A DNA stretch of 46,355 nt. It comes from an uncultured Gemmatimonadota bacterium. Its GTDB lineage: Bacteria > Gemmatimonadota > Gemmatimonadetes > Palauibacterales > KS3-K002. Shown here in pieces: positions 12,787 to 43,149 of this stretch. Position numbers and translations under genes: made by a program. Location of the stretch: the NCBI GenBank assembly GCA_964347085.1, contig CAYFXF010000005.1, forward strand, positions 1 to 46,355, given 5' to 3'. Each line of letters opens with the position of its first letter. The stretch's first letter is position 1. The notes under the pieces were generated by a model, which was given only the letters and a program-made list of their open reading frames with translations, ran no database searches and was not told where the DNA came from.

Positions 12787-12839
12787 GCGCGGAGCCAGAG
12801 GGGCGCGGCGGCCAGATCGGCCGTTGCTCAGGCAGGGGG

Positions 12840-12873
12840 GCGGCCCCGGAGGATGCTCCGGGGCCGCTTTGTT
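12840..12873 (+). terminator. Rho-independent terminator after the rhomboid gene
   Basis: Perfect 12-bp stem GCGGCCCCGGAG / CTCCGGGGCCGC with loop GATG, followed by TTTGTT. Confidence 0.7.
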
Positions 12874-12902
12874 GGGGCGGATCTTTTGGGCAGCGGGCGT
12901 CC

Positions 12903-12931
12903 TTGACGGGGTCGGTCGTGCAAAATACGAT
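12903..12931 (+). promoter_or_regulatory. Sigma-70-like promoter TTGACG-N17-TACGAT for the EF-G paralogue
   Basis: TTGACG at 12903-12908, a 17-nt spacer, TACGAT at 12926-12931. AGGGAGG (12961-12967) and TTG 12974 follow. Confidence 0.5.
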
Positions 12932-12973
12932 TGCGGTCCACACCACGACTTAGCACAGTCAGGGAGGCGGCAC

Positions 12974-15070
12974 TTGACAGCCAAAACCTTCAGTACCGAT
13001 GCCATTCGCAACATCGTCTTCCTCGGACACGGCGGCACCGGGAAGACGACGCTCGTCGACGCGCTCCACTTCGCCTCCGGGATGACGAATCGCAAGGGTT
13101 CGATCGGCGAAGGCACGACGGTCACCGATACCACGCCTGAGGAGAAGGAGCGGGGGATCAGCATCAGCGCTGCGGTCACCCATGCGATTTGGAGGGATAC
13201 GAAGCTGAACCTGATCGACACGCCGGGCTACCTCGACTTCGCTGGAGAGGCCAAGGCCGGCGTGCGGGTCGCGGACGGCGCGGTCGTCCTGGTCGACGGG
13301 ACGAGCGGTGTGCTGGTCGGCACGGAGAACGTCTGGGAGTACTGCGAAGAACGCGGCATACCGCGGCTGTTCGTCGTTTCGATGATCGACAAAGAGAACG
13401 CCAACTTCGACTCGGTGCTCGCGGAGATTCGCGAAGATTTCTCGAAGGACGCCGTAGCGCTCGAGATCCCCATCGGATCAGGTGAAGCGTTCAAGGGCAC
13501 GATCGACCTCCTGTCGGGCCGAGTGCGCGCGGCCGACCCGAAGTCGAACAAGGGTGAATACAAGGAGACCGAGGTGCCCGCCGAGCTGAAGGGTAGATAC
13601 GAGGAGGCCTACCAGGAACTGATCGAAGCGATCGCGGTGACCGACGACTCCTTGCTGGAGCAGTTCCTCGAGGGCGACACGATCGAGCCAAGGCGGGCGG
13701 CGGAGGCGCTGAAGGCGGCGATGAAGGGCGGCCAGCTGTTCCCGGTGATGTGCGCTTCGCCGGAGAGGGGGTGGGGTGTGCGCAGCCTGCTGGACCGCTC
13801 GATCGAGATCATGCCGAACCCGGCGGAGGCCAAGCCGGAGGTGGCGCGGCGCGGTGAGGAAGCGGTGGAGCTCGGTGCGGCGGACGGCGGGCCGCTCGCC
13901 GCGCTGGTGTTCAAGACCACCTCGGAGCCTCACGTGGGCGAGCTTTCCTACTTCCGGATCTTCTCCGGCTCGCTGAGCACCGGCGCCTCGGCGCAGAACA
14001 CCACGAGGGGAGCGATCGAGAAGCTGGGTCACCTGGCGATTCCGGTCGCTAAAGACCGGACGGAGGTGGAGGTGCTACATTGCGGTGACATCGGCGTCGT
14101 GGCCAAGCTGCGCGACACCCACACCGGTGACACGCTCGCCGCCGAGGGCGATTCGCTCGCTCTATCCGGAATCGAGTTCCCTGCGGCCGACATCGCGGTG
14201 GCCGTCAAGTCCGCCAAGCGTGGCGATGAGGACAAGGTCTCCACCGGTCTGCACAAGATTCACGAAGAGGACCCGACCTTCAGCGCCGCATACGATCCGG
14301 AGCTCGGGCAGACGATCGCCCGCGGCCTCGGCGAGATGCATTTGGAAGTCGCGATCGAACGGCTGAAGCGGCGCTACGGGGTGGAGGTCATCACCGAGCC
14401 GCCGCGCATCCCTTATCGCGAGACCATCACCAAACAGGCGGAGGGTCAGGGCCGCTACAAGAAGCAGACCGGTGGCCGCGGCCAGTACGGCGACTGCTGG
14501 ATCCGCTTGCACCCGATGCCGCGAGGAAGCGGCTACGAGTTCAAGAACAGCGTGGTCGGCGGCGTCATCCCCGGAAAGTTCGTCCCCTCAGTGGACAAGG
14601 GGGTCCAGGAGGCGGCGACCAGGGGCGTCGTCGCGGGGTATCCGGTGGTCGACTTCAAGGCAGAGGTCTACGACGGCTCTCACCATTCCGTCGACTCGTC
14701 GGACATCGCCTTCAAGGTGGCCGGGTCGCTGGCGTTCAAGAGCGTAGCGCAGTCGGCCGGCCCGGTGCTGCTGGAGCCCGTGTACGAGGTCGAGATCACC
14801 GTGCCGGACGAGTACATGGGCGACGTGATCGGCGATCTGAATCAGCGGCGCGGCCGGATCCTGGGGATGGAGCAGCGCGGCAAGAAGCAGGTCGTACGGG
14901 CGCACGTGCCGCTGGCCGAGTTGCACAAGTACTCCTCGACCCTGCGATCCATCACTCAGGGCCGCGGTAGCCACAAGAGGACGTTCTTTGCCCACGAGGA
15001 AGTGCCCGCTCAGATCATCGAGAAGATCATTGAGGCGGCGGAGGCCGAGCAGGAGGCGGCGAAGGCCTAG
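12974..15070 (+). CDS. Elongation factor G paralogue (divergent G domain)
   Basis: Five-domain EF-G layout: P-loop GHGGTGKTT, RGISI, DTPGYLDF, domain IV GSHHSVDSSDIAFKVAG, domain V. TTG 12974 has a strong SD 6 nt upstream. The 12824 start in the ORF track would add 50 non-homologous residues. Confidence 0.85.
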   Translation: MTAKTFSTDAIRNIVFLGHGGTGKTTLVDALHFASGMTNRKGSIGEGTTVTDTTPEEKERGISISAAVTHAIWRDTKLNLIDTPGYLDFAGEAKAGVRVADGAVVLVDGTSGVLVGTENVWEYCEERGIPRLFVVSMIDKENANFDSVLAEIREDFSKDAVALEIPIGSGEAFKGTIDLLSGRVRAADPKSNKGEYKETEVPAELKGRYEEAYQELIEAIAVTDDSLLEQFLEGDTIEPRRAAEALKAAMKGGQLFPVMCASPERGWGVRSLLDRSIEIMPNPAEAKPEVARRGEEAVELGAADGGPLAALVFKTTSEPHVGELSYFRIFSGSLSTGASAQNTTRGAIEKLGHLAIPVAKDRTEVEVLHCGDIGVVAKLRDTHTGDTLAAEGDSLALSGIEFPAADIAVAVKSAKRGDEDKVSTGLHKIHEEDPTFSAAYDPELGQTIARGLGEMHLEVAIERLKRRYGVEVITEPPRIPYRETITKQAEGQGRYKKQTGGRGQYGDCWIRLHPMPRGSGYEFKNSVVGGVIPGKFVPSVDKGVQEAATRGVVAGYPVVDFKAEVYDGSHHSVDSSDIAFKVAGSLAFKSVAQSAGPVLLEPVYEVEITVPDEYMGDVIGDLNQRRGRILGMEQRGKKQVVRAHVPLAELHKYSSTLRSITQGRGSHKRTFFAHEEVPAQIIEKIIEAAEAEQEAAKA

Positions 15071-23998: not shown

Positions 23999-25276
23999 AT
24001 GGAGATCCTCCGCGCCGTGCGGCGCGGTCATTTCGCCGACCGGGCGTTCGAACGTGTGGCCGGCGGCCTGGGCGAGGCGGACCGCCGACTGGCCCAGGAG
24101 CTCGCCTACGGCGTCCTGCGTCTGCGAGGTCGGCTCGATCACGTCCTCGGATCCCTGGTCCGCGGCGGAACCGACCGGCTCGAGCCCGACGTGCTGGACG
24201 CGCTGCGGCTCGGGTCTTACCAGCTGCTCGAGCTCGAGCGGGTGCCCGCGTACGCGGCTGTCTCAGACGCGGTGGAGCTGGCCAAACGGGCAGCGGGGCC
24301 GGGCGCGGCGGCGCTTGCCAATGCCGTGCTGCGGCGGTTGAGCGAGGCGACCTACGCCGCCTTCGAGTTTCCTCAGCTTGGGCGGGAGCCGCTGGACCAC
24401 CTGGCGACCTGGGGCTCCCACCCCCGCTGGCTGCTGGAGCGTTGGCTCGCTCGTTGGCCGCCGGACGAGGTGGCGCGGCTGGTTCAGCACGACAATTCGC
24501 GGCCGGCGGTGTACCTTAGCGTGGTCAGCGAGCGAGATAATGCGGTCCGTCGCCTAAGTGCGGCTGGCCTCGCGGCCGAGCCCGTGGCGTGGTCGGCGAC
24601 CTCGCTCCGTGTCGGCGGTGCTGACCTGGCGCGAGCGCTGGAGCGGGTAGAGGCCGTGGTGCAGGACCCCGGCGCGGCCGCGGTGGTCGACTACATGGCC
24701 CACGAACCGGGCGTCCCGCTGGTCGACTTCTGCGCAGCACCGGGTGGAAAGGCGGCGCTGATCGCGGCGCGGGGAGGTGAGGTCTGGGCGTTTGATGTGT
24801 CGCGGCAGCGGCTTGCCCGCCTGGTCGAGACTCGGGCGAGGCTCGGGCTCTCGCGCCTGCGGCTGGCCGTGGCCGACGCACGAGAGCCGCCCGTCAGCCG
24901 GATCGGCGCCGCACTGCTGGACGTCCCTTGCAGTGGAACCGGTACGCTCGGGCGGCACCCGGATGCGCGTTGGCGTTTGGCGCCCGGCGAGCTGGAGCAG
25001 CTTGCCCAGGTGCAGCGGCGGATGTTGGATGCAGTGGCGGACCGCATCGTACCGGGCGGTCAGCTGATCTACGCCACGTGCTCGCTCGAGCCGGAAGAGA
25101 ACGAAGAGCAGATCGAGCGTTTTCTGGCGACGCGCGAAGACTACGACTGGGATCCGCCGCCACCGGGTGCGGTTGCGGCCGACCTGCTGGACGATGCTGG
25201 GGCACTACGCGTCGAACCTCAGAGGCACGGCGTAGATGGAAGCTACGCGGCCCGACTCCGGCGCCGGTCGCTCTGA
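23999..25276 (+). CDS. rsmB: 16S rRNA (cytosine967-C5)-methyltransferase RsmB/Sun
   Basis: NusB-like N-terminal domain. SAM-MTase motifs (DFCAAPGGKA, LLDVPCSGTGTLGRHPD, YATCSLEPEENE). The ORF-track start at 23372 runs out of frame through thiG. ATG 23999 is the first canonical start after thiG; the true start may be slightly upstream (see findings). Confidence 0.85.
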   Translation: MEILRAVRRGHFADRAFERVAGGLGEADRRLAQELAYGVLRLRGRLDHVLGSLVRGGTDRLEPDVLDALRLGSYQLLELERVPAYAAVSDAVELAKRAAGPGAAALANAVLRRLSEATYAAFEFPQLGREPLDHLATWGSHPRWLLERWLARWPPDEVARLVQHDNSRPAVYLSVVSERDNAVRRLSAAGLAAEPVAWSATSLRVGGADLARALERVEAVVQDPGAAAVVDYMAHEPGVPLVDFCAAPGGKAALIAARGGEVWAFDVSRQRLARLVETRARLGLSRLRLAVADAREPPVSRIGAALLDVPCSGTGTLGRHPDARWRLAPGELEQLAQVQRRMLDAVADRIVPGGQLIYATCSLEPEENEEQIERFLATREDYDWDPPPPGAVAADLLDDAGALRVEPQRHGVDGSYAARLRRRSL

Positions 25277-26623: not shown

Positions 26624-27594
26624 AGATGACCCGCTGGCGTGCGACGTTAAAACGCAATTGGCCGTACATGCTCACGGGGACGCTGATCTCCGTCTTCCTT
26701 TGGGTGGCGGTGAGCGCGGACACAGTGGATGAGCAGACGCTCCCTGCCGATCTGGTCATCATCAATTCGGACCGCCGCTACGTGCTGACCGAGCGCGAGC
26801 CGGCGACGGACGAGATATCGGTCCTGTTCACGGGGCAAGCCGGTGACCTCGCCCTGCTCTCCGTTTCGCGGCCGCAGATCGTCGTACAGATCGACCGAGT
26901 GGACTCCCTGGTTTGGGAAGTTGCACTCAGCCCGGCCATGGTGCGTGGAAGGGGTAACCGCCAGCTCACGGATGTGCGAGCCGTCAGCGTGCGGCCGAAC
27001 CGCTTCCGTCTGCACTTCGAGCCCAGGGCGCAGAAGGTCGTGCGCGTCGTGCCCCGCGTGCGCGTGACCCCGGCCGAGGGCTTCGCACTCGCGGACTCGG
27101 CCCGGGCCGAGCCGGGGGCTATCGCGGTCGAGGGGCCGGAGGAAGCGGTGGCGGGGATCGATTCCGTGCTGACTGTGCCCGTTGTGCGCGAACGCCTACG
27201 CGAGTCGTTGTTCGTTGAGGCACCCCTGCAGCGACCGGAGCCGCGCCGCTTGCTGGAGCTGTCTTCGCTCAGCGTTCGAGTCATCGTTGCGGTCGAGCCG
27301 CGGGTCGAGCGCCTCTTCCCCAGCCTGCAGGTCGCGGTCGCCGGCGTCGACAGCGCGGGCCTCAGCGTCGAGCCACCGACGGTCAGCGTTCGCATCGCTG
27401 GGCCGCGCAGCGCGGTGCGCGCCGTGCGTGTGGAGTCGCTCACGCCCTGGGTAGAGCTGGGTGGGCCGGCCGATCTCGAGAAGGCAGCGCCGATCTGGGT
27501 CCGGGCTCCCAGTCCCCTCGTCAGCGTGACGGTCGAACCCGATTCCGCCGTGGTCCGCGAGGTGGAGACGAGCGCTCAGCCCGGCGGGCGCTGA
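26620..27594 (+). CDS. YbbR-like (CdaR-like) domain-containing protein
   Basis: N-terminal TM (WPYMLTGTLISVFLWVAV) followed by repeated beta-rich segments typical of YbbR repeats. The GTG start overlaps the upstream stop. Confidence 0.6.
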   Translation: MKMTRWRATLKRNWPYMLTGTLISVFLWVAVSADTVDEQTLPADLVIINSDRRYVLTEREPATDEISVLFTGQAGDLALLSVSRPQIVVQIDRVDSLVWEVALSPAMVRGRGNRQLTDVRAVSVRPNRFRLHFEPRAQKVVRVVPRVRVTPAEGFALADSARAEPGAIAVEGPEEAVAGIDSVLTVPVVRERLRESLFVEAPLQRPEPRRLLELSSLSVRVIVAVEPRVERLFPSLQVAVAGVDSAGLSVEPPTVSVRIAGPRSAVRAVRVESLTPWVELGGPADLEKAAPIWVRAPSPLVSVTVEPDSAVVREVETSAQPGGR

Positions 27595-29569: not shown

Positions 29570-30427
29570 GTGCCCACGCTACTCCATATCTCCGACCTGC
29601 ATTTTGGCGAGCCATTTCTAGCCGAGGTGGCGGAGGCCGTCGTAGCGCACAGTCAGGAGCTCGGGCCCGACGTGGTGGTGGTCTCGGGCGATCTGACCCA
29701 ACGGGCGCGGGCCGCTCAGTTCCGGCAAGCCGCCGAGTACTTGCGGCGTTTCGAGCCACCGGTGGTCGTGACGCCGGGCAATCACGACGTTCCGTTCTAC
29801 CGCATCTGGGAACGCTTCCTGGCGCCCTACCGCAACTATCGCCGCTACATCTCTGAGGAACTCGACAGCGTGACGGAGGTTACCGGCCTTCGTATCGTTG
29901 CGCTGAACTCGAGTCGCAGGTTGACCTTGACGAACGGTCGGATTCGCCGTTCGCAGCTCGACTTCGCTTCGCGGGCGTTCGAGGATGCGGATGGATCCCT
30001 GGTGCGGATCGTGGTGACGCATCACCACCTGGCTCCGCCGCCGGGGTTCCAACGTGGCAACGTGATGCCTTTCGCTCGTCGGGCGCTCAAGCGCTTCACG
30101 CACTTGAAAACGGATCTCATCCTAGCCGGTCACATGCATCGCTCCTATATCGGCAGCTCGCTGGACTTCTTCCCCGGCGACCTTGGGCGCCGAGGCATTG
30201 TGATCGTGCAGTGCGGGACCACGACGTCCCGGCGGGGTCGAGGTGTCGAGCGCGAGCGCAACACCTTGAACGTGATCCGGGTCGGCGACGGGACGATTCG
30301 AGTTGCGCACCATGCCTGGAACAAGAGGCTCGCTCGCTTCATGCCGATCAGCGAGCACCTGTTTCCGGGCGGTTCGAGGGAGTACTTGGGTGAGGTCGAT
30401 GAAGCCGGCGGTCCGGGGACGGCCTGA
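29570..30427 (+). CDS. Metallophosphoesterase (calcineurin-like)
   Basis: ISDLHFG, SGDLTQ, GNHD, VTHHH and GHMH motifs. Confidence 0.8.
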   Translation: MPTLLHISDLHFGEPFLAEVAEAVVAHSQELGPDVVVVSGDLTQRARAAQFRQAAEYLRRFEPPVVVTPGNHDVPFYRIWERFLAPYRNYRRYISEELDSVTEVTGLRIVALNSSRRLTLTNGRIRRSQLDFASRAFEDADGSLVRIVVTHHHLAPPPGFQRGNVMPFARRALKRFTHLKTDLILAGHMHRSYIGSSLDFFPGDLGRRGIVIVQCGTTTSRRGRGVERERNTLNVIRVGDGTIRVAHHAWNKRLARFMPISEHLFPGGSREYLGEVDEAGGPGTA

Positions 30428-32666
30428 GCGACGGAGCACGGGCCGCCTGGCGCTCGTCTGCCTCGCGCTGCTCGCCGGCCTCGCGCCGGCCGAGCCCGCC
30501 CGGGCCCAGGGCACGGCCCGCGACACGTTGCCGGTTGTCCGCAATCTAGAGATCAGTGGCAACGAGAAGCTGAGTGACGACGAGCTCAAGAGGGCGATCG
30601 CGACCCGGTCGAGCGGGTGCCGCTCGGCGTTCCTCAGCCCCTTCTGTTGGCTGGGGCTCGACGCGTTCAAGCGCAAGGCGCGGCTGGACCTGCGTGAGTT
30701 ACGCACCGACCTCGCCCGCCTTCGCATCTACTACTTCCGGCGCGGGTACCGTCAGGTTCAGGTCGACACGGCGCTGGTGCGCGAGGGGAAGCTCGTCGAC
30801 GTGACCTTCGTCATCGACGAGGGTCAGCCGGTTCTGGTAGGCAGCCTCGAGGCGCGGGGGCTCGAGGGGATCGCACCACGGCTGGCTCGCAACCTTCCCC
30901 TAAACGTCGGTGCTCCGTTCAGCGAGGTGGAGCTCGGTGTTTCGCGGGATCGACTCGAGCGCGGACTGCGTAACCTAGGCTACGCGGAAGCTGCGGTGCT
31001 GGTGGAGGCCTCGATCCCCGGAGCCGACACGCTGACGGCCCATGTCGTGCTCGAGGTGATTCCCGGCCCGCGCTACAACATCGGCGCCATCGAGGTGGAG
31101 GGTACTTCGGAGCTCGACCCGCGCGACGTCGTGCGGCTGCTCACCTTCCGCTCCGGTGACTTGTATCGGGAGGACGAGATCGTCCGCAGCCAACGCACGC
31201 TCTACTCGCTGGCGCTGTTCGATTACGTCGACATCACCGCCGAGCCGTCCGGCGCCGATTCCACGATCGACGTCCGAGTCCAGGTCAACGAAGCCGAGAT
31301 GCGTGGCGTGCAGTTTGGGGTCGGCGTCTCGACGACCGAATGCTTGCAGCTGGAAGCAGGTTGGGCGCACCGCAATCTCTACGGAGGTACCCGACGGCTC
31401 GACGTGACCGGCGTCCTCTCGAACCTTGGGACCCAGGCCTGGGCGCGGCAGTTCCCCTGCAACCAGGCCGGCGACACCACGGAGCTCGCGACCAACCCCT
31501 TCAACAAGATAAACTGGCGGTTACGCGCTGAGTTTCAGCAGCCGTGGCTGCTGGGCACGCAGAACTGGTTGCGACTGGGTGTGTTTACCGAGCGGCAGAG
31601 CTTGCCGCCTATCTACGCCCGCGTCAGCTACGGTGGGGACGCGCGATTGACTCGGGAAATCGCGCCGGGGACCGCGCTCAGCGCTTCTTTCCGGGCTGGG
31701 CGTGACAGCTTGGAGGAGGGGAGCGCCGATTTCCTGTTTTGCGCCAACTTCGGCGTGTGCACGCCGAGCGACATCGAGACACTCTCGGAGACGCGCTGGC
31801 TCAACTGGGTGACCCTCGACTTTGTGCGCAGCACGACGGACGCGGTCCTTAGTCCCACCCGCGGCTACCGGCTTAGCCTGGAAGGCGAGCATGCGTCGCG
31901 CCTGACCGGCTCCGAGTGGACATACTATCGGGCCCAGGCCGAGCTGAGCTGGTATCAGCGGTTCGGGCCCGGCCGGATCGTGGCGCTGCGGGTACGGGGG
32001 GGTCGGGTCGTGCCGATCGGCTCCGGCTTGGAAGGGGTCAGCCTCGAGGAGGTGAGGGAGCCGGTGACCAATCCACTCAAGCGGCAGTACGCAGGTGGAG
32101 CGTACACGGTGCGCGGATTCGGGCAAAATCTTCTCGGCCCGAAGGTGCTGCTGGCCAATGCCTCGGAGTTGGCCGACACGACGCGAGCAGGGGCAGGGGC
32201 CTGCGACCCGACGGAGGTGACGGAAAAGAACATCTGGATCTGCGACCCGACGGCGGCAGGCCTGACCTCCGATGACGTGGTCCCACGGCCGGTGGGCGGC
32301 GAAAACTCTGTGGTCGCGAACGCCGAGTTGCGCTGGCCGCTCGGTAGCCGCTGGACCGGGGTCGTCTTCGTGGACCTGGGCAAAGTCTGGACAGTGGGCG
32401 GAGAGAAGAGTGAAGCGGAGTCACTGGCTTGGTCACCGGGCATCGGACTCCGCTACCGCAGCCCGGTGGGGCCGCTACGTCTAGATATCGGCTACAACAC
32501 AGGGAGTAGTGAGCGGCTACGGGTGGTGAGCGTGCTGGGAACCGGCGCCGAGACGACGATCGTCCAGCTCAGCGAACTTTTCAACCACGACCCGTTCGAG
32601 GGATCCGGCTTGCGAGGTTTCTTGAACCGGTTGCAGCTCCACTTTTCGATCGGACACGCGTTCTAG
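30399..32666 (+). CDS. Omp85 (BamA/TamA family) outer membrane protein, about 3 POTRA repeats plus a beta-barrel
   Basis: Signal peptide (LALVCLALLAGLAPAEPARAQG), POTRA-like repeats, a surface-antigen barrel, and C-terminal beta-signal ending ...HFSIGHAF. Its stop overlaps the tamB-like start. Confidence 0.85.
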   Translation: MKPAVRGRPERRSTGRLALVCLALLAGLAPAEPARAQGTARDTLPVVRNLEISGNEKLSDDELKRAIATRSSGCRSAFLSPFCWLGLDAFKRKARLDLRELRTDLARLRIYYFRRGYRQVQVDTALVREGKLVDVTFVIDEGQPVLVGSLEARGLEGIAPRLARNLPLNVGAPFSEVELGVSRDRLERGLRNLGYAEAAVLVEASIPGADTLTAHVVLEVIPGPRYNIGAIEVEGTSELDPRDVVRLLTFRSGDLYREDEIVRSQRTLYSLALFDYVDITAEPSGADSTIDVRVQVNEAEMRGVQFGVGVSTTECLQLEAGWAHRNLYGGTRRLDVTGVLSNLGTQAWARQFPCNQAGDTTELATNPFNKINWRLRAEFQQPWLLGTQNWLRLGVFTERQSLPPIYARVSYGGDARLTREIAPGTALSASFRAGRDSLEEGSADFLFCANFGVCTPSDIETLSETRWLNWVTLDFVRSTTDAVLSPTRGYRLSLEGEHASRLTGSEWTYYRAQAELSWYQRFGPGRIVALRVRGGRVVPIGSGLEGVSLEEVREPVTNPLKRQYAGGAYTVRGFGQNLLGPKVLLANASELADTTRAGAGACDPTEVTEKNIWICDPTAAGLTSDDVVPRPVGGENSVVANAELRWPLGSRWTGVVFVDLGKVWTVGGEKSEAESLAWSPGIGLRYRSPVGPLRLDIGYNTGSSERLRVVSVLGTGAETTIVQLSELFNHDPFEGSGLRGFLNRLQLHFSIGHAF

Positions 32667-35600
32667 TGACCTGGAAAGAGCGGCTCATCGGCATCCCGCT
32701 GGCCATCGTCGGAGCGTTGCTGCTGCTCGCGACCGGCGCCGGCATGCTGCTAACGCGGACGGATTGGGGCCGGGAGCAGGTGAGGTCGTTTGCCCTTGAG
32801 AAGCTGAACGCGGCAATCCGCGGGCGGGTGGAGATCGATGCGGTTCTGGAGGGCGATCTGCTCCGCATGGTGCGCTTTGCTGGGGTACGTCTGTACGAGC
32901 CGAACGGGGTGGAGTTCGCGCGGGTGGATACCCTGGCGGTTCACTATCGTTGGGCGGACTTCCTGGTCGGGAACGTGATGTTGCCGCAGGTGACGCTGAT
33001 CGGGCCGGTCGTCAACCTGCGGAAGTCACCGGAGGAAGATTGGAACTTCCTAGCGATCTTCCGGGGCCAAAGCGAACCCGACACGGCGGAGGCGAGACCC
33101 GAGCCACGGCAACCTGGGAGTCGGCGCCGCGTCGTGCTCCGGGACGTCACGATTCGCGGAGGTGACGTGTCGCTCCGCTTGCCCTGGGAGCCGGAGCGCG
33201 ATGGGGAGGCGGACACGACTCGCTGGTACGTGGAGCGAACCGACGGTGGTTGGCAGCGGGTGTTTCGCCTCGAGCGGCTCAACGCTCGGCTGCCGAACGC
33301 TCGAGTGGTCGCGCCGCAGGAGCAGGGTCGGCTGTTCCAGATCGCGCAGCTGAGCGGCATCGCTACTGTGATCGGCGAACCGATTGAGCTGGTGCAGCTC
33401 CGTGCGGACCTCGAGCTCCACGGCGATTCGCTCTCCTTCGACATCTGGGAGGCCGACCTGCCGGCATCGCATCTGTTCGGTCAAGGCTGGGTCACGCTGG
33501 CAGGAGAGCTCCAATACGACTTGACGTTGCGGGCCAACCCGGTAGCGACGCGGGACCTGGTCTGGTTGATCCCCAGACTGCCAGCCGGCGTGGCCGAGCT
33601 GGACTTTGCTATGCGGAGTCTGGACCGCGGGATCGAGTTCCAGCTGCAGAACGCGGACTGGGAGTCGCAGGACGCCCGGCTCAGAGGCCGGTTTGCCGTG
33701 CGTTTAGGGGAGGGTGGCGTTGGGCCCGAGTTCAGGGACGTCGCGCTGGACATCGCGCGCCTGAACACGGCCCTGGCCGGTCCACTGATCGGGTGGCAGC
33801 CCCCGCTCGAGGCCGTTCTATCGGGAACGGTCGCCCTCGACGGATCGATGTCGGCGCTGCGCGTCGATGCCGACGTGCTGATCGAAACGGAGAGCGCCGA
33901 CACGCTGTCACGCGTGAAGGGTGTCGGCACTATCCACGCTGCGACCGGAGCACTCGGAGCGTCCGGACTCGAGCTTGAGTTCGCGCCCCTCGAGCTGGCG
34001 CTGGTGCGATCCTTCGCGCCGGGCCTGGCGGTCGAGGGTCGGCTGAACGGGGTTGCAAATCTGGACGGAAGCTTGCCGTCGGGCCTGGCGATCCAGTTCG
34101 ATGTCGAACAGCGCGATCGAACTCTGGTCCCGAATCGACTGAGCGGCCGTGGAACGGTGGCGGCGGACGGGCGGTCACCAACGCGACTCGATTTCCGGGC
34201 CCGCGCCGACCCGATCTCTCTGACCACGCTGGCCCGTTACTACCCCGCCGTTCCATTTCGCGGTGACTTCCGCGGCGACCTGCGTGTCGCCGGTGGCCTG
34301 GACGATCTGGCTGTGGAGGTGGATCTGTCCGGGCTCGGCGACTCGCTGCAGGTGCGTGGGAACCTGCAGCTGGCCGCCATACCACCCCGTTATAGCGGGT
34401 TCGTGCGCGGCTGGCGGATCCGCTTGCCGGAATTCCGGCGCGGTTTGCCGATCTCTGACCTCGACTTTCGAGTGGAAGGCGAGGGGCAGGGGGCCAGGCT
34501 GCCGGAACTGCAGGCACGTGGACAGCTAGACGTCTTCGCCTCCTTCGTGGGTGGCGTGCGCGTGGACTCGGCAACGGCGGCCGTGGGTGTGAGCGGCGGT
34601 CGGCTGACCGTCGACACGTCCCTGGTCAAAGGTGAGTTCGGCGAGCTGACTATCTGGGGCGGTCTGCGCCTGACGGATGCTGCGGCGGACAGCCTCTTTG
34701 TTGAACTGGTAGCGGACAGCCTCGGCGCGCTCAACCCCTGGCTCTTTCCAGACTACGGCCCCACAGGCGCCCCTGCGCTGGCGGCAAACGGATCGGAGGG
34801 CGTCGTTGGTCAAGAGGCTCCTCGAGTCGAAGGCCAGGCGCGGGTCAGCGGTCGGCTGGTGCGTGAGTCGGGCCGCCTAGCCCTGCGCGGACGTCTCGAG
34901 GGTGAAGGGATCGGCTATCGTGATTGGACGGCGGAGGGCCTGGAGGTCGAGTCGTTCGAGGTCGGTAGTCCAGAAGGTGGCGTGCGGGCGGTCGGCGAGC
35001 TGACGGCCAGGGGTGTGGGGTTGGGAGAGCTGCGCTTCGAGGAACTGAGGCTGCGCGGCGGCCTGGTGGATACCGTGACTACGCTCGATTTCGAGCTGGC
35101 CAAGCCTGACGCTTCGGCTCAGGGTCGGTTGCGAATCGGCCTGGGCCAGACGGCGCGCACGATCGGGCTCGATTCACTCGCACTTCAATTCGGGGAAGGG
35201 GTGTGGGCGCTGGCCCAGCCAGCCCAGCTTCGACTGGAGGAGACGGGTGCGCTCGCCGTTGAGGACTTCAGGCTAGTGAGCGGAGGGCGGCGGATCGCGC
35301 TGGAGGGCGCCATCGGGGTCACGGGCCCAGCGACCTTCAGCGCCCAGCTCGGCGGCGTGAATCTCTCCGACATTGATCGCCTGTGGCCGGATAGCTTGGG
35401 CCTGGCGGGCCAGCTCCGGCTCGACGCCCAGCTTAGCGGCCGGGTCCGCGATCCTATCGTGCAGGGTGAGTTCGAGATCGTCGACGGTCAGCTGTTCGGC
35501 GTGTCCTTTAGCAGTTTCCGCGGTACACTCGCGTACCAAGGGAGCGCGCTCGCGCTGGACGCCTCCGCCTGGCAGGACCGTACGCGCCTCTTCCGTCTCC

Positions 35601-37087
35601 ACGGCACGCTACCGCTCGAGTTGCAGCTACCACGTGTGGAGCTTGCGTTGCCAGAGCGCGAGATCGACCTGCGGCTGGAGGGCGACCGCGTGCCCCTGAC
35701 GCTCGCTTTGCTCATCTCGGACCAGATTGACGACGTGACGGGCCACGCAGGCGCGGCCGTCCGCATCGGTGGAACGTCGGAGACGTTGAACCTCGAGGGA
35801 CCGATAACGCTCGTCGATGGCAGCTTCCGCGTTGTCCGAACGGGTATCAGGTACCAGGCGCTGGAAGGCGACCTCTCTTTCCGTGGCACCACGCTTACCG
35901 TCGAGCAAGCTCGACTCCGCAGCTCGACCGGCGGCCGCGGCGTGGTGACCGGCACGGTCGATCTGCTCGATCTGACCAACCCGCGCTTCGACCTGCAGCT
36001 AACCGCGCAGGCCTTGCCTGTCTACGACCAACTTGACGCGCGAGCCGTGGTCTCGGGTACTACGACCCTGCGGGGCCCTTACGAGGAGCCCGAATTCACC
36101 GGCGCGGTGTCGGTGGTGAGCGGCGTATTGTTCGTCGAGGAGATCGGCCGGCAGCGGCGGATCGTCGATCCCTTCAAGGAGAGACTTCTGCTCATCGATA
36201 CGATCTTCGGATTCGATGTTGCCGGGCGCCAGCGCAGTCCATTCATGGAGAACCTCACAATGGACCTCGGCCTCAAGGTCGAGCGAGACACATGGCTGAG
36301 GTCCGAGGAGATGAACGTCGAGATCGCGGGCGACCTCGTGGCGCGAATGCAACCCGGCGAGGAACTCCCCCGTATCACCGGCACGTTGCAGGCGATTCGA
36401 GGCGAATACCGATTTCTCAACAAGCGTTTCGAGGTCAACGAGGGCACGATCGAATTTGTCGGCTCGGAGACCGTCAACCCGAACCTGCGGATCGTGGCGC
36501 TCTACACCGTCCGGACGCAGAAACGCCCGATCCAGATCCGCCTGGTCATCGGCGGCACGCTCGAGGACATGACGTTGACCCTTGAGAGCACAACTCAGCC
36601 ACCCATTCCGGAGTCTGATCTTCTCTCTTACCTGGTGTTCGGCAGACCGTCCTACGAGCTCACCCGCGGCAGTGAAGAGAGCAGTTTGCTGGGGGACATC
36701 ACGCGCGGTGCGCCGCAGGCGCTGTTCGGTTATGCGTTGGGCTCTCTGCTCGTCGGCGAGTCGGGCATCGCCTACATTGACGTGAGCCGGGTCGAAGCGG
36801 GAGGTGCCGAGACGGAATACCGCGGCGGCGTGGGTCCCGCGCTCTCGGCCACCCAGGTCGAAGTCGGTTGGTATCTGGCTCCCACGGTCTTCGTCAGCGT
36901 CGCTCAGCAGCTGATCGGCGTTGTGCGGCCCACCGTTCGGCTCGAATGGCGCCTGGACGACCGCCTCACAATTCGCGGCGTTACCGAGCCGCGCTTCGGT
37001 AGCGAAGGGATTCTCGCCTTCGAAGCCTCAGGTACCGATCTCGAGCAATCGTTCGGCGTCTTCTTGTTTTACGGTTGGGCCTATTAG
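32666..37087 (+). CDS. Translocation and assembly module protein TamB-like (AsmA/DUF490 family)
   Basis: 1473 aa with an N-terminal anchor, a long beta-rich repetitive body, and a DUF490-like C-terminus. It immediately follows the Omp85 gene (TAGTG overlap). Confidence 0.8.
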   Translation: MTWKERLIGIPLAIVGALLLLATGAGMLLTRTDWGREQVRSFALEKLNAAIRGRVEIDAVLEGDLLRMVRFAGVRLYEPNGVEFARVDTLAVHYRWADFLVGNVMLPQVTLIGPVVNLRKSPEEDWNFLAIFRGQSEPDTAEARPEPRQPGSRRRVVLRDVTIRGGDVSLRLPWEPERDGEADTTRWYVERTDGGWQRVFRLERLNARLPNARVVAPQEQGRLFQIAQLSGIATVIGEPIELVQLRADLELHGDSLSFDIWEADLPASHLFGQGWVTLAGELQYDLTLRANPVATRDLVWLIPRLPAGVAELDFAMRSLDRGIEFQLQNADWESQDARLRGRFAVRLGEGGVGPEFRDVALDIARLNTALAGPLIGWQPPLEAVLSGTVALDGSMSALRVDADVLIETESADTLSRVKGVGTIHAATGALGASGLELEFAPLELALVRSFAPGLAVEGRLNGVANLDGSLPSGLAIQFDVEQRDRTLVPNRLSGRGTVAADGRSPTRLDFRARADPISLTTLARYYPAVPFRGDFRGDLRVAGGLDDLAVEVDLSGLGDSLQVRGNLQLAAIPPRYSGFVRGWRIRLPEFRRGLPISDLDFRVEGEGQGARLPELQARGQLDVFASFVGGVRVDSATAAVGVSGGRLTVDTSLVKGEFGELTIWGGLRLTDAAADSLFVELVADSLGALNPWLFPDYGPTGAPALAANGSEGVVGQEAPRVEGQARVSGRLVRESGRLALRGRLEGEGIGYRDWTAEGLEVESFEVGSPEGGVRAVGELTARGVGLGELRFEELRLRGGLVDTVTTLDFELAKPDASAQGRLRIGLGQTARTIGLDSLALQFGEGVWALAQPAQLRLEETGALAVEDFRLVSGGRRIALEGAIGVTGPATFSAQLGGVNLSDIDRLWPDSLGLAGQLRLDAQLSGRVRDPIVQGEFEIVDGQLFGVSFSSFRGTLAYQGSALALDASAWQDRTRLFRLHGTLPLELQLPRVELALPEREIDLRLEGDRVPLTLALLISDQIDDVTGHAGAAVRIGGTSETLNLEGPITLVDGSFRVVRTGIRYQALEGDLSFRGTTLTVEQARLRSSTGGRGVVTGTVDLLDLTNPRFDLQLTAQALPVYDQLDARAVVSGTTTLRGPYEEPEFTGAVSVVSGVLFVEEIGRQRRIVDPFKERLLLIDTIFGFDVAGRQRSPFMENLTMDLGLKVERDTWLRSEEMNVEIAGDLVARMQPGEELPRITGTLQAIRGEYRFLNKRFEVNEGTIEFVGSETVNPNLRIVALYTVRTQKRPIQIRLVIGGTLEDMTLTLESTTQPPIPESDLLSYLVFGRPSYELTRGSEESSLLGDITRGAPQALFGYALGSLLVGESGIAYIDVSRVEAGGAETEYRGGVGPALSATQVEVGWYLAPTVFVSVAQQLIGVVRPTVRLEWRLDDRLTIRGVTEPRFGSEGILAFEASGTDLEQSFGVFLFYGWAY

Positions 37088-38079: not shown

Positions 38080-39021
38080 GTGTTCAGAGAGCGGGAAGTG
38101 GACCCTAAGCCGTACGTCTTCGTAATCCACAACCCGGCGGCGGGGATGCGCAGGCCCGGGCGGGTACGGCGTCGAATCGAATCGACGCTGTCGTCCCGCG
38201 GAATTCCCTTCGACTACGCCTACACCGAGGAACCGGGACACGGCTCGGAACTTGTGGCAGGGGCGCTGGCGCGAGGCTTCCAGCGCATCTTGGTTGCGGG
38301 CGGCGACGGGACCGTGCGTGAAGCGGTCGCGGCGCTGGCGGGGAAGGACGCCGCGCTGGCGCTCATCCCGGTGGGCACGGGAAACCAGCTCGCCGCTAAC
38401 CTCGGGGTTCCCAAACGGTTCAGCCACTCGCTGCACGTGGCGCTCAGCGGCGGTCTGCGCCGAATCGACCTGGGTCTGGTGGATGGGCGTCCGTTCACGT
38501 CCATCGCCGGGGCGGGCTTCGACGCGGAGGTCGTACGGCCGGGGTCGCGTTTGAAACGCCGCGTGGGGTTTCTGGCCTACGTGCATTCCGCGGCCCGCGC
38601 GGTGCTCGCGCCGCGGCCGGTCGAGCTTAGAGTCGAGGTCGACGGGACGGTGATGCAGGGACGTGGAATCGGTGTGGAAGTCACCAACATGCCCGGACTC
38701 ACCGCGCCCGGCTTGCGTCGCCCTGTGCCGATCGTGCCAGCGGGGAAGATGGATGACGGGCAGCTCGACGGCTGTCTGGTGGCGGCGGAGACCACACTCG
38801 ATTGCCTGTCCGCTTTGGGCTCGATCTTGCGACGAAAGTACGGTCGAGATCGAAGGCTTCGGTACTTCAGCGGCCGTAGCATAGCCGTGCACGCCGATCC
38901 GCCGCTCCGAGTGCAGGCCGACGGCGAGCTGCTGGGTCTGACCCCCTTCACGATCCGTGTCTGGCCACAGGCGCTCAGCGTTATGGTTCCGGCCGCTATG
39001 GCGGCGACAAACAATGCCTGA
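38080..39021 (+). CDS. Diacylglycerol/lipid kinase family protein (YegS/BmrU-like)
   Basis: [25 protein letters not shown], and a length of 313 aa. Confidence 0.85.
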
Positions 39022-41854
39022 CGAGTTCCTGATCGTCCGCGGCGCCCGCGAGCACAACCTCAAGAATATCGACGTCCACCTGCCTCGGAACCGGTTGACC
39101 GTCATCACCGGCCTCTCCGGCTCGGGGAAATCGAGTCTGGCGTTCGATACGATCTTCGCCGAGGGACAGCGGCGCTACGTCGAATCGCTGTCGGCCTATG
39201 CGCGGCAGTTCCTGGGCTTGATGGAGAAGCCCAACGTCGACACGATCGAGGGGCTCTCACCTGCCATCTCGATCGAGCAGAAGACGGCGAGCCGAAACCC
39301 GCGCTCGACGGTCGGCACGATAACCGAGATCTACGACTATCTCCGTCTACTCTGGGCGCGCTGCGGCACCCCCCACTGTCCGTCTTGCGGTAAACCGGTC
39401 CGCCGGCAGACGCCCCAGCAGGTGGCCGAGGCCGTGCTCTCCTGGCCCGAGCGAACGCGTGTCGAGGTGACGGCGCCACTGGTCCGCGGCCGGAAGGGCG
39501 CATTTCGCGAACTGCTCGAGCGGGCGCGTAAGGACGGCTTCGTGCGGGTGCGGGTAGATGGGGCGACCTACGACCTCGACGACCCGCCGAAGCTGAACCG
39601 CCGGCTGAACCACGATATCGCTGTTATCGTCGACCGACTCATGGTGCGGCGGCAGGATCGAGCACGGCTCACCGACTCGGTCGAGATCGCATTTCGCACC
39701 GCGGACGGCGTGGTCCAAATCGAGCGCTATCTGGATGGGGACGAGGTCGAGAGCCATCTGTTCAGCGAGCGCTACGCTTGCCCCGACTGCGGCATCAATC
39801 TCCCCGAACTGGAACCCCGCCAGTTCTCCTTCAACTCGCCGTACGGCGCCTGCTCCGCCTGCGGCGGCCTCGGGGCTCGCAAGGTGGTCAACCCCGACCT
39901 CATGCTTGCCGATGGCCGGTTGTCGCTGCTGGAGGGCGTGCTGGTGCCTTGGGGCTCGCCCGTCGGGTACCTGCGCAAGCGGGTCATCGAGCCGCTGGCA
40001 CGCAAGTATGGCCTGCATCCCAACACGGCCTGGGATGGGCTGCCCGAGACGATGCAGCAGGAAGTCCTCTTCGGCAGCGAGGACCTCGATTGGGAAGGCG
40101 CGGTGTCGCGTTTGGAGCGCCGTTATCACGAGACGGCGAGTGAGAAGCTGCGGGCGCGGCTGACCGAGTTCATGTCCGATGCGGTTTGCGGCGACTGCAA
40201 GGGTAGCCGACTGCGAGCGGAGGCTCTGGCGGTCAGCTTCGCGGGTAAGTCGATCGGTGAAGTGGTAGGATTGACCGCTGACCGGGCGCGCGAGTTCTTC
40301 GAGTCTGTCAGGCCGTCAGGCGACGGTCATGGGTCTCCGGCGGTCAATGCCGTGGCCGATCCGATACTCAAGCAGATCCGAGAACGCCTGCGTTTCTTGG
40401 CCGACGTCGGTGTCGGCTACCTATCGCTCGGTCGCAGCGCCGAAACCCTCGCCGGCGGCGAGGCCCAGCGCATACGGCTGGCGACGCAAATCGGCTCCCG
40501 GCTCGTGGGCGTGCTCTACATCCTGGATGAGCCGTCGATCGGACTCCACCAGCGCGACAACGGGCGACTGCTCGAGACCCTCGAAGCGCTGCGCGACCTT
40601 GGCAATACCGTAATTGTGGTCGAGCACGATGAGGCCACGATACGGCGGGCGGACCACATCCTCGATCTGGGTCCCGGCGCGGGGCGGCGTGGTGGCGAAG
40701 TCGTGGTGGAAGGCAGTCTCGATGAGGTGCTCGGCACTCGCGAGTCCCTAACCGGCGCCTACCTGCGCGGTGAGCGGAGAATCGACGTCCCCGCGGCCCG
40801 GCGTAGCGGTTCCGGCACGAGTCTTCGTATCCGTGGCGCTCGCCAGTACAACCTCAAGACCGTTGATGTGGAGTTCCCGCTCGGCCGCTTCATCTGTGTC
40901 ACCGGTGTTTCAGGCTCGGGAAAGTCCACATTGGTCGAGGAGATACTTTACCGCGAACTGGCGCGACGACTCTACCGCTCGCGAGTCGTCCCGGGCATGC
41001 ACGACGCCATCGAAGGGCTGAACCAGATCGACAAAGTGATCGACGTCGATCAATCGCCGATCGGTCGGACACCCCGCTCCAACCCCGCCACTTACACGGG
41101 TGTCTTCACGCCCGTGCGGCAACTCTTTGCCCAGCTCCCGGAATCGCGTATCCGTGGCTACGCTCCCGGGCGCTTCAGCTTCAACGTGAAGGGCGGGCGC
41201 TGCGAAGCCTGCCGCGGGGACGGTCTGCTCAAGATCGAGATACATTTTCTGCCCGACGTCTACGTCCCCTGCGAGGTGTGTCGCGGCCGCCGCTACAACC
41301 GGGAGACGCTGGAGGTGTTCTACAAGGGCAAGAGCATCGCTGACGTGCTGGCCATGACGGTGGACGAAGCGCTGGAGTTCTTTCAGCCCATCCCCACGAT
41401 TCGGCGCAAGCTGCAGACGCTCAGCGATGTGGGTCTCGGCTACATCACGCTGGGTCAGAGTTCGACCACCCTCTCGGGTGGCGAGGCGCAGCGCGTCAAG
41501 CTAGCCACGGAACTCAGTAAGGTTCAGACGGGGAAAACCCTCTACATCCTGGACGAGCCGACTACGGGCTTGCACTTCGAAGACATTCGCTTGCTTCTGC
41601 ATGTCTTGCACCGTCTAGTCGAGCGTGGCAATACGGTCGTGGTGATCGAGCACCAGCTCGACGTGATCAAGACGGCCGATTGGATCATCGATCTCGGGCC
41701 CGAAGGCGGCGATCGAGGCGGGGAAGTCGTCGCGGCCGGCACACCCGAACAGGTTGCCGCCAACACGGCGAGCCTGACGGGAGAGTTCCTGCGCCCGTTG
41801 CTGAATCGGCGAGGCAAGAGAGAAAAGAGAGGACGGGAGGCGCAAAGTGTCTGA
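39014..41854 (+). CDS. uvrA: Excinuclease ABC subunit A
   Basis: [47 protein letters not shown], two ABC modules, and zinc-finger CxxC pairs. ATG 39014 overlaps the end of the kinase gene by 8 nt. Confidence 0.97.
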
Positions 41855-42611
41855 TGTGGATTCGCATGCGGAGCGTGATCTGAATCTGGCGGGCCGGGCC
41901 TGGCTGGCTCTAGGGATCGGCCCCCAGCGGGAGCCGCCGCGCCTGCACCGCCTGGAGGTGCCGCTGGCGGAGGCGCGGCTGGCGCTGGTGACCACGGGCG
42001 GCTTCGTGCCAGCGGGCGGCGAGCCGTTCAGGGCGGGCAAGTTTGGCGATCCCAGCTTCCGGGAGATCCCGACCGATCAGGACCCGGAGTCGCTCGAGAT
42101 CTTTCACACGCATTACGACCACGCTCACGTCAGGCGCGATATAAACGTTCTCTTCCCGATCGAGCTCTGTAGAGAATTGGCCGCACAGGGCGTCATCGGG
42201 GACCTTGCCGCGACCCACTACTCCTTTATGGGCTACATCCCAGTCACCCGTCGCTTAGAACGCCACTACGCTCCCCAGGTTGCCGGACAACTCGAACAGC
42301 AGCAGGTCAACGCCGTGCTGCTCACCCCTGCGTGACCCACTTGCAACCGGACCGTAGGTCTGGTCGCGCGTGAGATCGAGAGGCACGAGATGTCGACGGT
42401 TTGCATCATGAACCTGCGGAAGGTGGCGGAACGCATACGCGCCCCACGCACTTTGCTGCTGGATCGACCAATGGGTGCATTGATCGGCGAGCCGGGCGAT
42501 CGTGCTGGGCAGCGATCCGTGGTGCTGGCGGCACTTCAACTCTTGACACGCTCCGCTGTCGAGCCTGGTGAGATCAGCGAGTACACAACTTTGGGCACTG
42601 CAGGTCCGTGA
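41847..42611 (+). CDS. GrdB/PrdB-family (selenoprotein B-like) reductase; predicted selenoprotein with in-frame TGA (Sec) at 42333-42335
   Basis: ORFs 41847-42335 and 42390-42611 share one frame and are separated only by TGA 42333. The joined sequence reads ...[27 protein letters not shown]..., matching from memory the GrdB active site LT..U..C.R.G....KEIE. Upstream family signatures are present ([47 protein letters not shown]). GTG 41847 follows GGGAGG and overlaps the uvrA stop. Confidence 0.7.
42343..42367 (+). promoter_or_regulatory. Candidate bacterial SECIS stem-loop downstream of UGA 42333
   Basis: GC-A-ACCGGACC-GUA-GGUCUGGU-C-GC: an 8-bp stem with one G-U pair, plus 2 outer bp across an A/C mismatch. 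It begins 8 nt after the UGA. The apex lies about 20 nt downstream and contains G/U. Confidence 0.45.
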
Positions 42612-42633
42612 GCCTCGGGGCCGGAGGAGAGAG

Positions 42634-43149
42634 ATGACCCCATTCACGTCGTTGCTCGAGGAGACGCTGGAGGCGTGGTCGGATGTGCGGAGCGGCTTGA
42701 TCGAAGAGGTGGAAAATATCCCCGAAGACCGCTTTGACTTCCGGCCGACGCCCGAACTTCGAAGCGTGACCGAGCTCCTACAACACATACTCGAGGTCGC
42801 CCTGCTGATGACGGGCGAGCTGACCCGCCCGGACACGGATTTTCATCGCGCGGAGTGGTCGGAGCTGCTGGATGAGTACGCATCCCACACACGGGACGCA
42901 CGTAGCAAAGCGGAGCTGCTCGACTTGCTCGCAGGCTCGTTCGCGGAGGCGGAGCATTCGTTCGCGATGGTTGGCGAAATCCACATGCTGCAATTCATCA
43001 CACGCTTCGATGGGGAGCTGGGAACCCGCCTCGCCTGGCTGAATCATGGGATCGCGCAAGAGATGTATCATCGGGGCCAGCTCGTCTTGTACGAGCGCTT
43101 GATGGGCATCGAGCCTGCACTGACACGAAAGATCCGTGGGGGATCCTGA
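42634..43149 (+). CDS. DinB-family (DinB/YfiT-like four-helix bundle) protein
   Basis: Pattern of conserved His residues (LLQHILEV ... WLNHGIAQEMYHRGQL) and a length of about 170 aa. ATG 42634 is preceded by GGAGGAGAGAG. Confidence 0.75.
   Translation: MTPFTSLLEETLEAWSDVRSGLIEEVENIPEDRFDFRPTPELRSVTELLQHILEVALLMTGELTRPDTDFHRAEWSELLDEYASHTRDARSKAELLDLLAGSFAEAEHSFAMVGEIHMLQFITRFDGELGTRLAWLNHGIAQEMYHRGQLVLYERLMGIEPALTRKIRGGS

Follow-up and report, generated by a model that had tools for sequence, protein, structure and literature searches.

The question raised by this stretch of DNA, 46,355 nt of a contig from an uncultured Gemmatimonadota bacterium (here called the window), is whether an in-frame UGA codon at positions 42333-42335 ends a short protein or is decoded as selenocysteine (Sec) within a longer one, and what kind of protein would then be encoded. 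A preliminary description made from the letters alone had favored the latter, a Sec-containing protein of the GrdB/PrdB family in which the UGA opens a U-x-x-C site and precedes a hairpin of the selenocysteine insertion sequence (SECIS) type. Our analysis confirms the observation and supports its interpretation, and we consider it highly probable that positions 41847-42611 are a true gene of the GrdB/PrdB superfamily that is decoded with Sec. The evidence lies in the structure of the gene, the conservation of its UGA, a hairpin that sits at the SECIS position and shows both conservation and covariation, membership in the superfamily, and homologues with Cys in place of Sec.

The two open reading frames (ORFs) at 41847-42335 and 42390-42611 lie, as had been claimed, in one frame with only the TGA at 42333-42335 between them. 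Read from GTG 41847 to TGA 42609-42611, they form a single frame of 254 codons whose sole interruption is codon 163, and the previously given length, position of the Sec residue (U), and peptide are reproduced exactly. The database copy of this product is an unnamed 162-aa protein (P0001), and only this shortened form is stored. Long stop-free frames are frequent in the window DNA (66.5% GC), and a frame of 254 codons is by itself not above chance. Neither the frame nor the hairpin beats chance singly; both gain their significance from homology across the TGA and from comparative data.

A search of approximately 5.8 billion proteins returned 283 homologues, and nearly all of the 120 listed have lengths of 154 to 166 aa, which indicates truncation by gene callers at one shared point. 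The expectation that automatic annotation would split or shorten the gene is thus borne out for the window and for most of its relatives. Loci were also recovered from DNA, by a scan of GTDB with one genome per species that used a peptide pattern adjoining the Sec site; the pattern came from a 6-sequence alignment, a 13-sequence alignment having no sufficiently conserved stretch. Of the 529 tblastn-confirmed matches, the best 80 loci by similarity form our comparative set. In all 80, a TGA is followed by x-x-C, across at least six phyla and in taxa comprising Gemmatimonadota, Chloroflexia, Bacillaceae, Clostridia, Acidobacteriota, Desulfuromonadales, Thermodesulfobacteriota, and Dehalococcoidia. 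The same arrangement, with the frame continuing 3' of the stop, is observed in five Gemmatimonadota loci (L001-L005), so the TGA falls in the Sec/Cys column of the family, as had been proposed. Among 81 read-through proteins, seven residues past the UGA are invariant (C166, E178, T184, P200, R201, G210, and G214). Orthologues without the downstream segment, which the preliminary description had named as contrary evidence, were not seen in this set, where the downstream frame is conserved; an in-frame UGA followed by a conserved coding frame in orthologues is the pattern by which selenoprotein genes are recognized.

Cys-containing orthologues, also anticipated, are numerous. The Cys form P0055, whose CPLC motif aligns with U-x-x-C and whose first Cys aligns with U, has 960 matches, with cultured Ktedonobacteria among them. 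Two metagenome proteins display other non-Sec variants: C-P-L-D in P0054, where the second Cys is missing, and S-K-L-C in P0120, where Ser occupies the Sec position. In both, redox chemistry may have been altered or abandoned. Separately, Dehalococcoidia-type homologues (P0063, P0067, and L084) carry an extra ~90 to 130 N-terminal residues before the PrdB-like core.

The hairpin was analyzed in a gap-free alignment of the 48 nt that start with the UGA in 81 sequences. A stem of nt 14-21 and 25-32 enclosing a 3-nt loop is found in almost all lineages, and standard pairs fill 90% of its cells, versus 13 to 49% when the 3' arm is slid by 1 to 3 nt. Six of the eight stem pairs show changes on both sides, and the covariation score of 0.317 (0.149 ± 0.013 in shuffled alignments) is reached by none of 500 shuffles. 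RNAalifold independently recovers the inner five pairs. Paired replacements include AAC/GUC to AAU/AUC at columns 15/31 (C-G to U-A), ACC/GGU to UCC/GGA at columns 19/27 (A-U to U-A), and CAG/CUG to CAA/UUG at columns 18/28. Since several such compensations couple synonymous or conservative codon changes, the aligned sequences argue for selection on the hairpin RNA besides the protein. At the first loop position, G22 never varies, while the residue that it helps encode, residue 170, can be Val, Ala, or Gly; the element thus combines the canonical SECIS distance from the UGA with an apical-loop G. It had previously been placed at 42343-42367, starting 8 nt after the UGA. The hairpin itself is present and covariation supports its being of the SECIS type, but that starting point does not hold: the span merges the conserved core, which begins at 42346, 11 nt after the UGA, with part of a lower stem specific to the window (42342-44/42366-68).

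Two departures from the common hairpin were observed. In aerobic Bacillaceae, a U-U mismatch replaces the 19/27 pair and the loop is larger (CAGUC-GGCCG-GUCUG); the 13 loci concerned (L019, L024, L026, L030, L031, L037, L039, L041, L042, L048, L060, L064, and L076) contribute 13 unpaired cells at that pair. Four Chloroflexota loci (L045, L063, L065, and L079) have U-P-D/E-C-C/A motifs and a different, shifted hairpin (e.g., GCCGGAGCGUGCCCGUGCUGGC), and may constitute a separate SECIS type or subclade.

To assign the protein, profile searches were run with Cys in place of the UGA-encoded residue 163. Pfam GRDB (PF07355) is matched with 51.6 bits (gathering cutoff, 22; E = 1.1e-13), residues 40-160 aligning to model positions 223-345 of 347. 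The model ends 2 to 3 residues before U163, from which we infer that its seed sequences were cut at the Sec codon of the family. The NCBIfam models for PrdB, GrdB, GrdF, and GrdH all align across the Sec site, and U-P-T-C lies at the active-site position where the superfamily has U/C-x-x-C, in agreement with the family originally proposed. The best NCBIfam match is the PrdB equivalog TIGR04483, with 134.4 bits and E = 4e-39 over residues 30-234, a region that spans the TGA. TIGR01918 (various_sel_PB) gives 65.6 bits, marginally above its subfamily cutoff of 65.45, and relatives score 39 to 76 bits on the same model. The Grd models (TIGR01917, NF040794, and NF040795) score 58 to 66 bits against cutoffs of 602 to 800, with a match confined to their C-terminal half (model positions 220-423); the full architecture of ~430 aa is not present in a protein of 254 aa. 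The protein had been called PrdB-like rather than GrdB-like, and this difference in scores, together with the absence of the ~220-aa N-terminal region of GrdB, agrees with that view.

PrdB-like, however, is not PrdB. A genuine PrdB subunit of D-proline reductase, with PrdA and accessory genes elsewhere in the genome, would account for the top-scoring model and for the PrdB-like length and Sec position, and it would match the name "D-proline reductase (dithiol) PrdB" that JGI and some NCBI records give to relatives. We nevertheless regard it as improbable. The window protein stays far below the TIGR04483 equivalog cutoff of 300 bits, as do seven other stand-alone members, in both Sec and Cys forms and from five phyla, with 137 to 197 bits, so that every stand-alone member tested falls between 134 and 197. 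Nor is the gene associated with PrdA and a prd operon: the precomputed Pfam lists for the 10 kb around L001-L005 contain no PrdA, GrdE, GrdA, or PrdC-type gene, and none emerges from ORF clustering within 5 kb of 81 loci, where no neighbor is common across phyla. Moreover, the carriers include Bacillaceae, Chloroflexus, and Ktedonobacteria, lineages that are not known for Stickland fermentation. The window protein is thus PrdB-like and not a PrdB equivalog, and with 134 bits against 300 and no PrdA nearby, the label "proline reductase" is not justified. Its assignment reaches as far as a U-x-x-C selenol/thiol enzyme that is not D-proline reductase, and no further.

The fold was approached through an AlphaFold2 model of the natural CPLC homologue P0055, an alpha/beta fold with a predicted local distance difference test score of 94.5 and a predicted template modeling (TM) score of 0.92. 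In this model, strand 132-136 leads into a loop that contains the U/C position, and helix 140-155 carries the second Cys in its first turn. Such a placement, in the loop after a strand and in the first helix turn, is usual for a redox-active pair. By extension, the window protein is predicted to have a Rossmann-like alpha/beta fold with Sec163 in the poststrand loop and Cys166 in the first helix turn.

Following the bacterial paradigm, a SelB-type factor carrying Sec-tRNA(Sec) would bind the hairpin at 42346-42364 and insert Sec at residue 163 in place of termination. By analogy with PrdB, the Sec163 selenol might then attack a bound substrate or disulfide, Cys166 would resolve the resulting adduct to form a selenenylsulfide, and the latter could be rereduced by a thiol system of general cellular use, without a pyruvoyl partner. 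The model for this chemistry is the PrdB catalytic cycle reportedly worked out by Kabisch et al. in 1999. As no dedicated PrdA, GrdA, or GrdE partner gene was found, the substrate is probably something other than D-proline, glycine, or betaine. The stand-alone PrdB-like proteins are mostly Sec forms with a large Cys branch. We tentatively suggest, at a confidence just short of even, that they make up a distinct, self-contained selenoenzyme family that works without a pyruvoyl partner, combines U-x-x-C with an invariant polar pocket (D68, R72, H87, D98, N100, E178, and R201), acts on a small-molecule or thiol substrate, and is coupled to a thiol-dependent enzyme of the DinB type in Gemmatimonadota. 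If so, one of the most abundant selenoprotein families in the environment would have a non-Stickland function and the wrong name in current annotation.

Several points weigh against the reading of 41847-42611 as a selenoprotein gene or against the function suggested for it. The 80-locus set is biased toward close, Sec-type members and undersamples Cys-type and divergent ones, because loci were retrieved with a peptide pattern bordering the Sec site and then ranked by similarity. Because the coding sequence that contains the hairpin is itself conserved, the protein accounts for some of the hairpin's conservation; the 68-nt fold is no better than that of shuffled sequences (z = -0.76; 49 of 200 shuffles fold as well), and Rfam gave no match, either for the whole window at the gathering threshold or for 42250-42450 at permissive settings. 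The last result says little, since Rfam is not known to contain a general model of bacterial SECIS elements. With Escherichia coli queries, tblastn found no SelA, SelB, or SelD in the window or in 87 fetched loci, and no tRNA-Sec was found there either, ARAGORN reporting no tRNA in the window and only tRNA-Glu in the fetched loci. As for function, Foldseek identified no significant relative of the P0055 model in PDB (best E = 8e-3, TM score below 0.35), its matches being generic Rossmann-like or periplasmic-binding-like folds only, and a PDB sequence search gave no relevant match. Finally, we infer both the chemistry and the absence of a partner, as partners could be encoded elsewhere.

Regarding the Sec machinery, two Gemmatimonadetes bins of 67 to 68% GC from a sponge metagenome each contain one SelA, SelB, and SelD COG (PMC5649159 Table S4), which means that the Sec trait exists in the phylum. 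Gemmatimonadota are absent from a survey of selenium utilization (PMC5029168) and from reviews. Within the window, the only SelB-like tblastn match, at 13025-13435 (29% identity, 140 aa) was rejected, as Pfam confirms it to be the GTPase domain of elongation factor G (EF-G). A scan of the window for a second selenoprotein gene, based on in-frame TGA and a filter on GC content at third codon positions (GC3), gave two candidates that were discarded by their coordinates, one at 27592 being a junction of adjacent genes and one at 24263 an antisense frame. The filter is insensitive, because the downstream part of the known target itself has a GC3 of only 0.67.

That the TGA is a true stop, with a 162-aa product followed by a decaying remnant or by the separate ORF 42390-42611, is what gene callers in effect report: besides P0001, they place a separate 66- to 73-aa ORF downstream in L001, L006, and L007. 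We consider this reading very improbable all the same, since the 91 downstream codons remain in frame and are conserved in 81 loci across phyla, with their seven invariant residues, and have their homologous counterpart in the C-terminal third of both the Cys forms and the PrdB model. The most conserved motif falls between the TGA and ATG 42390, and the covariation of the hairpin also speaks against a stop. Decoding of UGA without Sec, by reassignment to Trp or Gly or by SECIS-independent near-cognate read-through placing Trp or Cys at 163, fits the lack of any Sec-specific gene in the 46-kb window and is hardly credible otherwise, given that UGA terminates 9 of the 18 Pfam-supported genes there, plus the selenoprotein gene itself (so the code is not reassigned), that non-UGA forms have Cys at the homologous position in a redox-type C-x-x-C motif, that the SECIS-like hairpin is conserved with E. 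coli spacing and an invariant loop G, and that the family is already established as a selenoprotein (PMC1088965, PMC2398784).

With the gene taken as Sec decoding, its surroundings (Table 1) suggest how it may be expressed. The uvrA-like gene, with its stop at 41852-41854, shares 8 nt with the start of the selenoprotein gene at GTG 41847, an arrangement suggestive of translational coupling. A gene for a CDP-alcohol phosphatidyltransferase stands between the two in some relatives from Gemmatimonadota. Downstream, DinB is the next called Pfam-bearing gene in L001-L006, a neighborhood confined to Gemmatimonadota and recurring in 6 loci of that group in the 81-locus clustering. No terminator-like site was found between the selenoprotein and DinB genes, and the two are probably cotranscribed in this phylum. 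DinB proteins are commonly thiol dependent. Mechanical ORF calling starts the DinB frame at a GTG at 42568, inside the selenoprotein coding sequence (42568-43149, +); ATG 42635 is the likelier start because GGAGG precedes it and the resulting 171 aa equal the length in orthologous loci.

Table 1. Features of the selenoprotein locus, with other genes of the window and the neighbors seen in each lineage
Feature	Position	Strand	Description
Complete selenoprotein coding sequence (predicted)	41847..42611	+	GTG start, Sec163, terminator TGA 42609-42611; stand-alone PrdB-like, GrdB/PrdB superfamily
Shine-Dalgarno-like GGGAGG	41835..41840	+	6 nt 5' of GTG 41847; read from sequence
UGA predicted to encode Sec, residue 163	42333..42335	+	Opens U-P-T-C motif; TGA column conserved, Cys there in full-length homologues
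Cys166 codon	42342..42344	+	Proposed resolving Cys of U-x-x-C; 100% conserved in 81 read-through proteins
Conserved SECIS core hairpin	42346..42364	+	8-bp stem 42346-42353/42357-42364, loop GUA 42354-42356; starts 11 nt after UGA
Extended lower stem, window specific	42338..42372	+	42338-40/42370-72 and 42342-44/42366-68; minimum free energy fold, not conserved across phyla
uvrA-like ABC ATPase gene	38957..41854	+	965 aa; Pfam UvrA_inter and UvrA_DNA-bind
DinB-family gene	42635..43149	+	Pfam DinB and DinB_2; 23 nt downstream, co-oriented
Canonical EF-G gene	12824-15070	+	All five EF-G domains (Pfam)
Gemmatimonadota neighbor			DinB
Chloroflexia neighbor			DUF547
Bacillaceae neighbor			Fe/Mn superoxide dismutase
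Desulfuromonadales neighbors			Rhodanese and B12/radical-SAM protein (DUF4080)

Neighbors outside Gemmatimonadota are likewise lineage specific, isocitrate lyase being a further one, and they have no clear common theme, with at most a faint flavor of thiol or redox stress. The top "conserved neighbors" of the clustering proved to be the two halves of the selenoprotein gene and antisense shadow ORFs. One of the antisense ORFs, 42255-42836 (-), has an equivalent in 56 of 81 loci and is an artifact caused by the high GC content of conserved coding DNA rather than a gene. Farther upstream, at 30303-37087 (+), ORFs of 787 and 1473 aa occupy the place where relatives carry Omp85/POTRA (TamA-like) and TamB/DUF748 genes; the block is followed by an M48 peptidase and a YegS/DAGK-type lipid kinase and is syntenic with the Gemmatimonadota loci L002-L004.

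For annotation, these results mean that databases represent the window gene, like almost every homologue in them, by a truncated ~160-aa protein plus an orphan ORF, and that such miscalled genes could be repaired by a simple rule: UGA, 10 nt, an 8-bp stem, and a G-U-N loop. Gemmatimonadota join the lineages that carry the PrdB-like selenoprotein family, and the orthologue is also present on a complete chromosome of the phylum, CP070722.1 (L001/L011). In NCBI records, relatives are called [quoted passage not shown] and for the stand-alone subfamily as a whole the label "D-proline reductase PrdB" is unjustified. The family has ranked among the most abundant environmental selenoproteins for 20 years, and cultured carriers exist, such as Guptibacillus hwajinpoensis DSM 16206 (NZ_CP119526.1) and Chloroflexus islandicus.

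Compared with known systems, the hairpin is closest to the SECIS of E. coli fdhF, which likewise lies within coding sequence. The upper stem-loop of the E. coli element begins 11 nt from the UGA and comprises nt 15-31, with G23 and U24 essential (PMC8659212); the corresponding element here comprises nt 14-32, starts at the same distance, and has a loop that also begins with G and then U (G22/U23). Unlike the fdhF SECIS, it lacks a bulged U in most lineages, where a 3-nt loop closes a perfect stem of 8 bp.

The protein resembles PrdB of the Clostridium sticklandii and C. difficile type (TIGR04483) in its length (PrdB, ~240 to 250 aa), in having Sec about two-thirds along the chain, and in U-x-x-C. 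It differs from PrdB in scoring well under half of the equivalog cutoff and in the absence of prdA, prdC, prdD, prdE, and prdF context around the stand-alone gene, which moreover occurs in Gemmatimonadota, Chloroflexia, Bacillaceae, and Acidobacteriota, not in Stickland fermenters. Its carriers include many aerobes. With GrdB, GrdF, and GrdH (PF07355, TIGR01917/TIGR01918), it shares a homologous C-terminal half (about 221-431) and the Sec position, whereas their N-terminal region of ~220 residues is missing and the window gene has no GrdA, GrdE, GrdC, or GrdD neighbors.

The nearest counterpart is a family known from marine metagenomes. The Sargasso Sea survey (2005) counted 42 sequences of a "Proline reductase PrdB" (pfam07355, UxxC) among its most abundant selenoprotein families (PMC1088965), and the Global Ocean Sampling survey (2008) reported 235 Sec and 110 Cys forms (PMC2398784). 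In the available portions of both surveys, the PrdB name is listed and neither function nor gene context is discussed (PMC1088965, PMC2398784), and recent reviews also list the PrdB selenoprotein family (PMC9312934, PMC13188914). Because a PrdB (UxxC) family is already on these lists, the window gene is a miscalled member of a known selenoprotein family. The marine family shares the Pfam family, UxxC, Sec and Cys forms, and an origin in environmental bacteria, and, judged by description, it is most likely the same stand-alone subfamily. Our results go slightly beyond this prior literature in that the stand-alone subfamily fails the tests for PrdB membership and has no conserved partner gene, in that a strongly covarying, fdhF-like SECIS is common to it across phyla, and in its presence in Gemmatimonadota.

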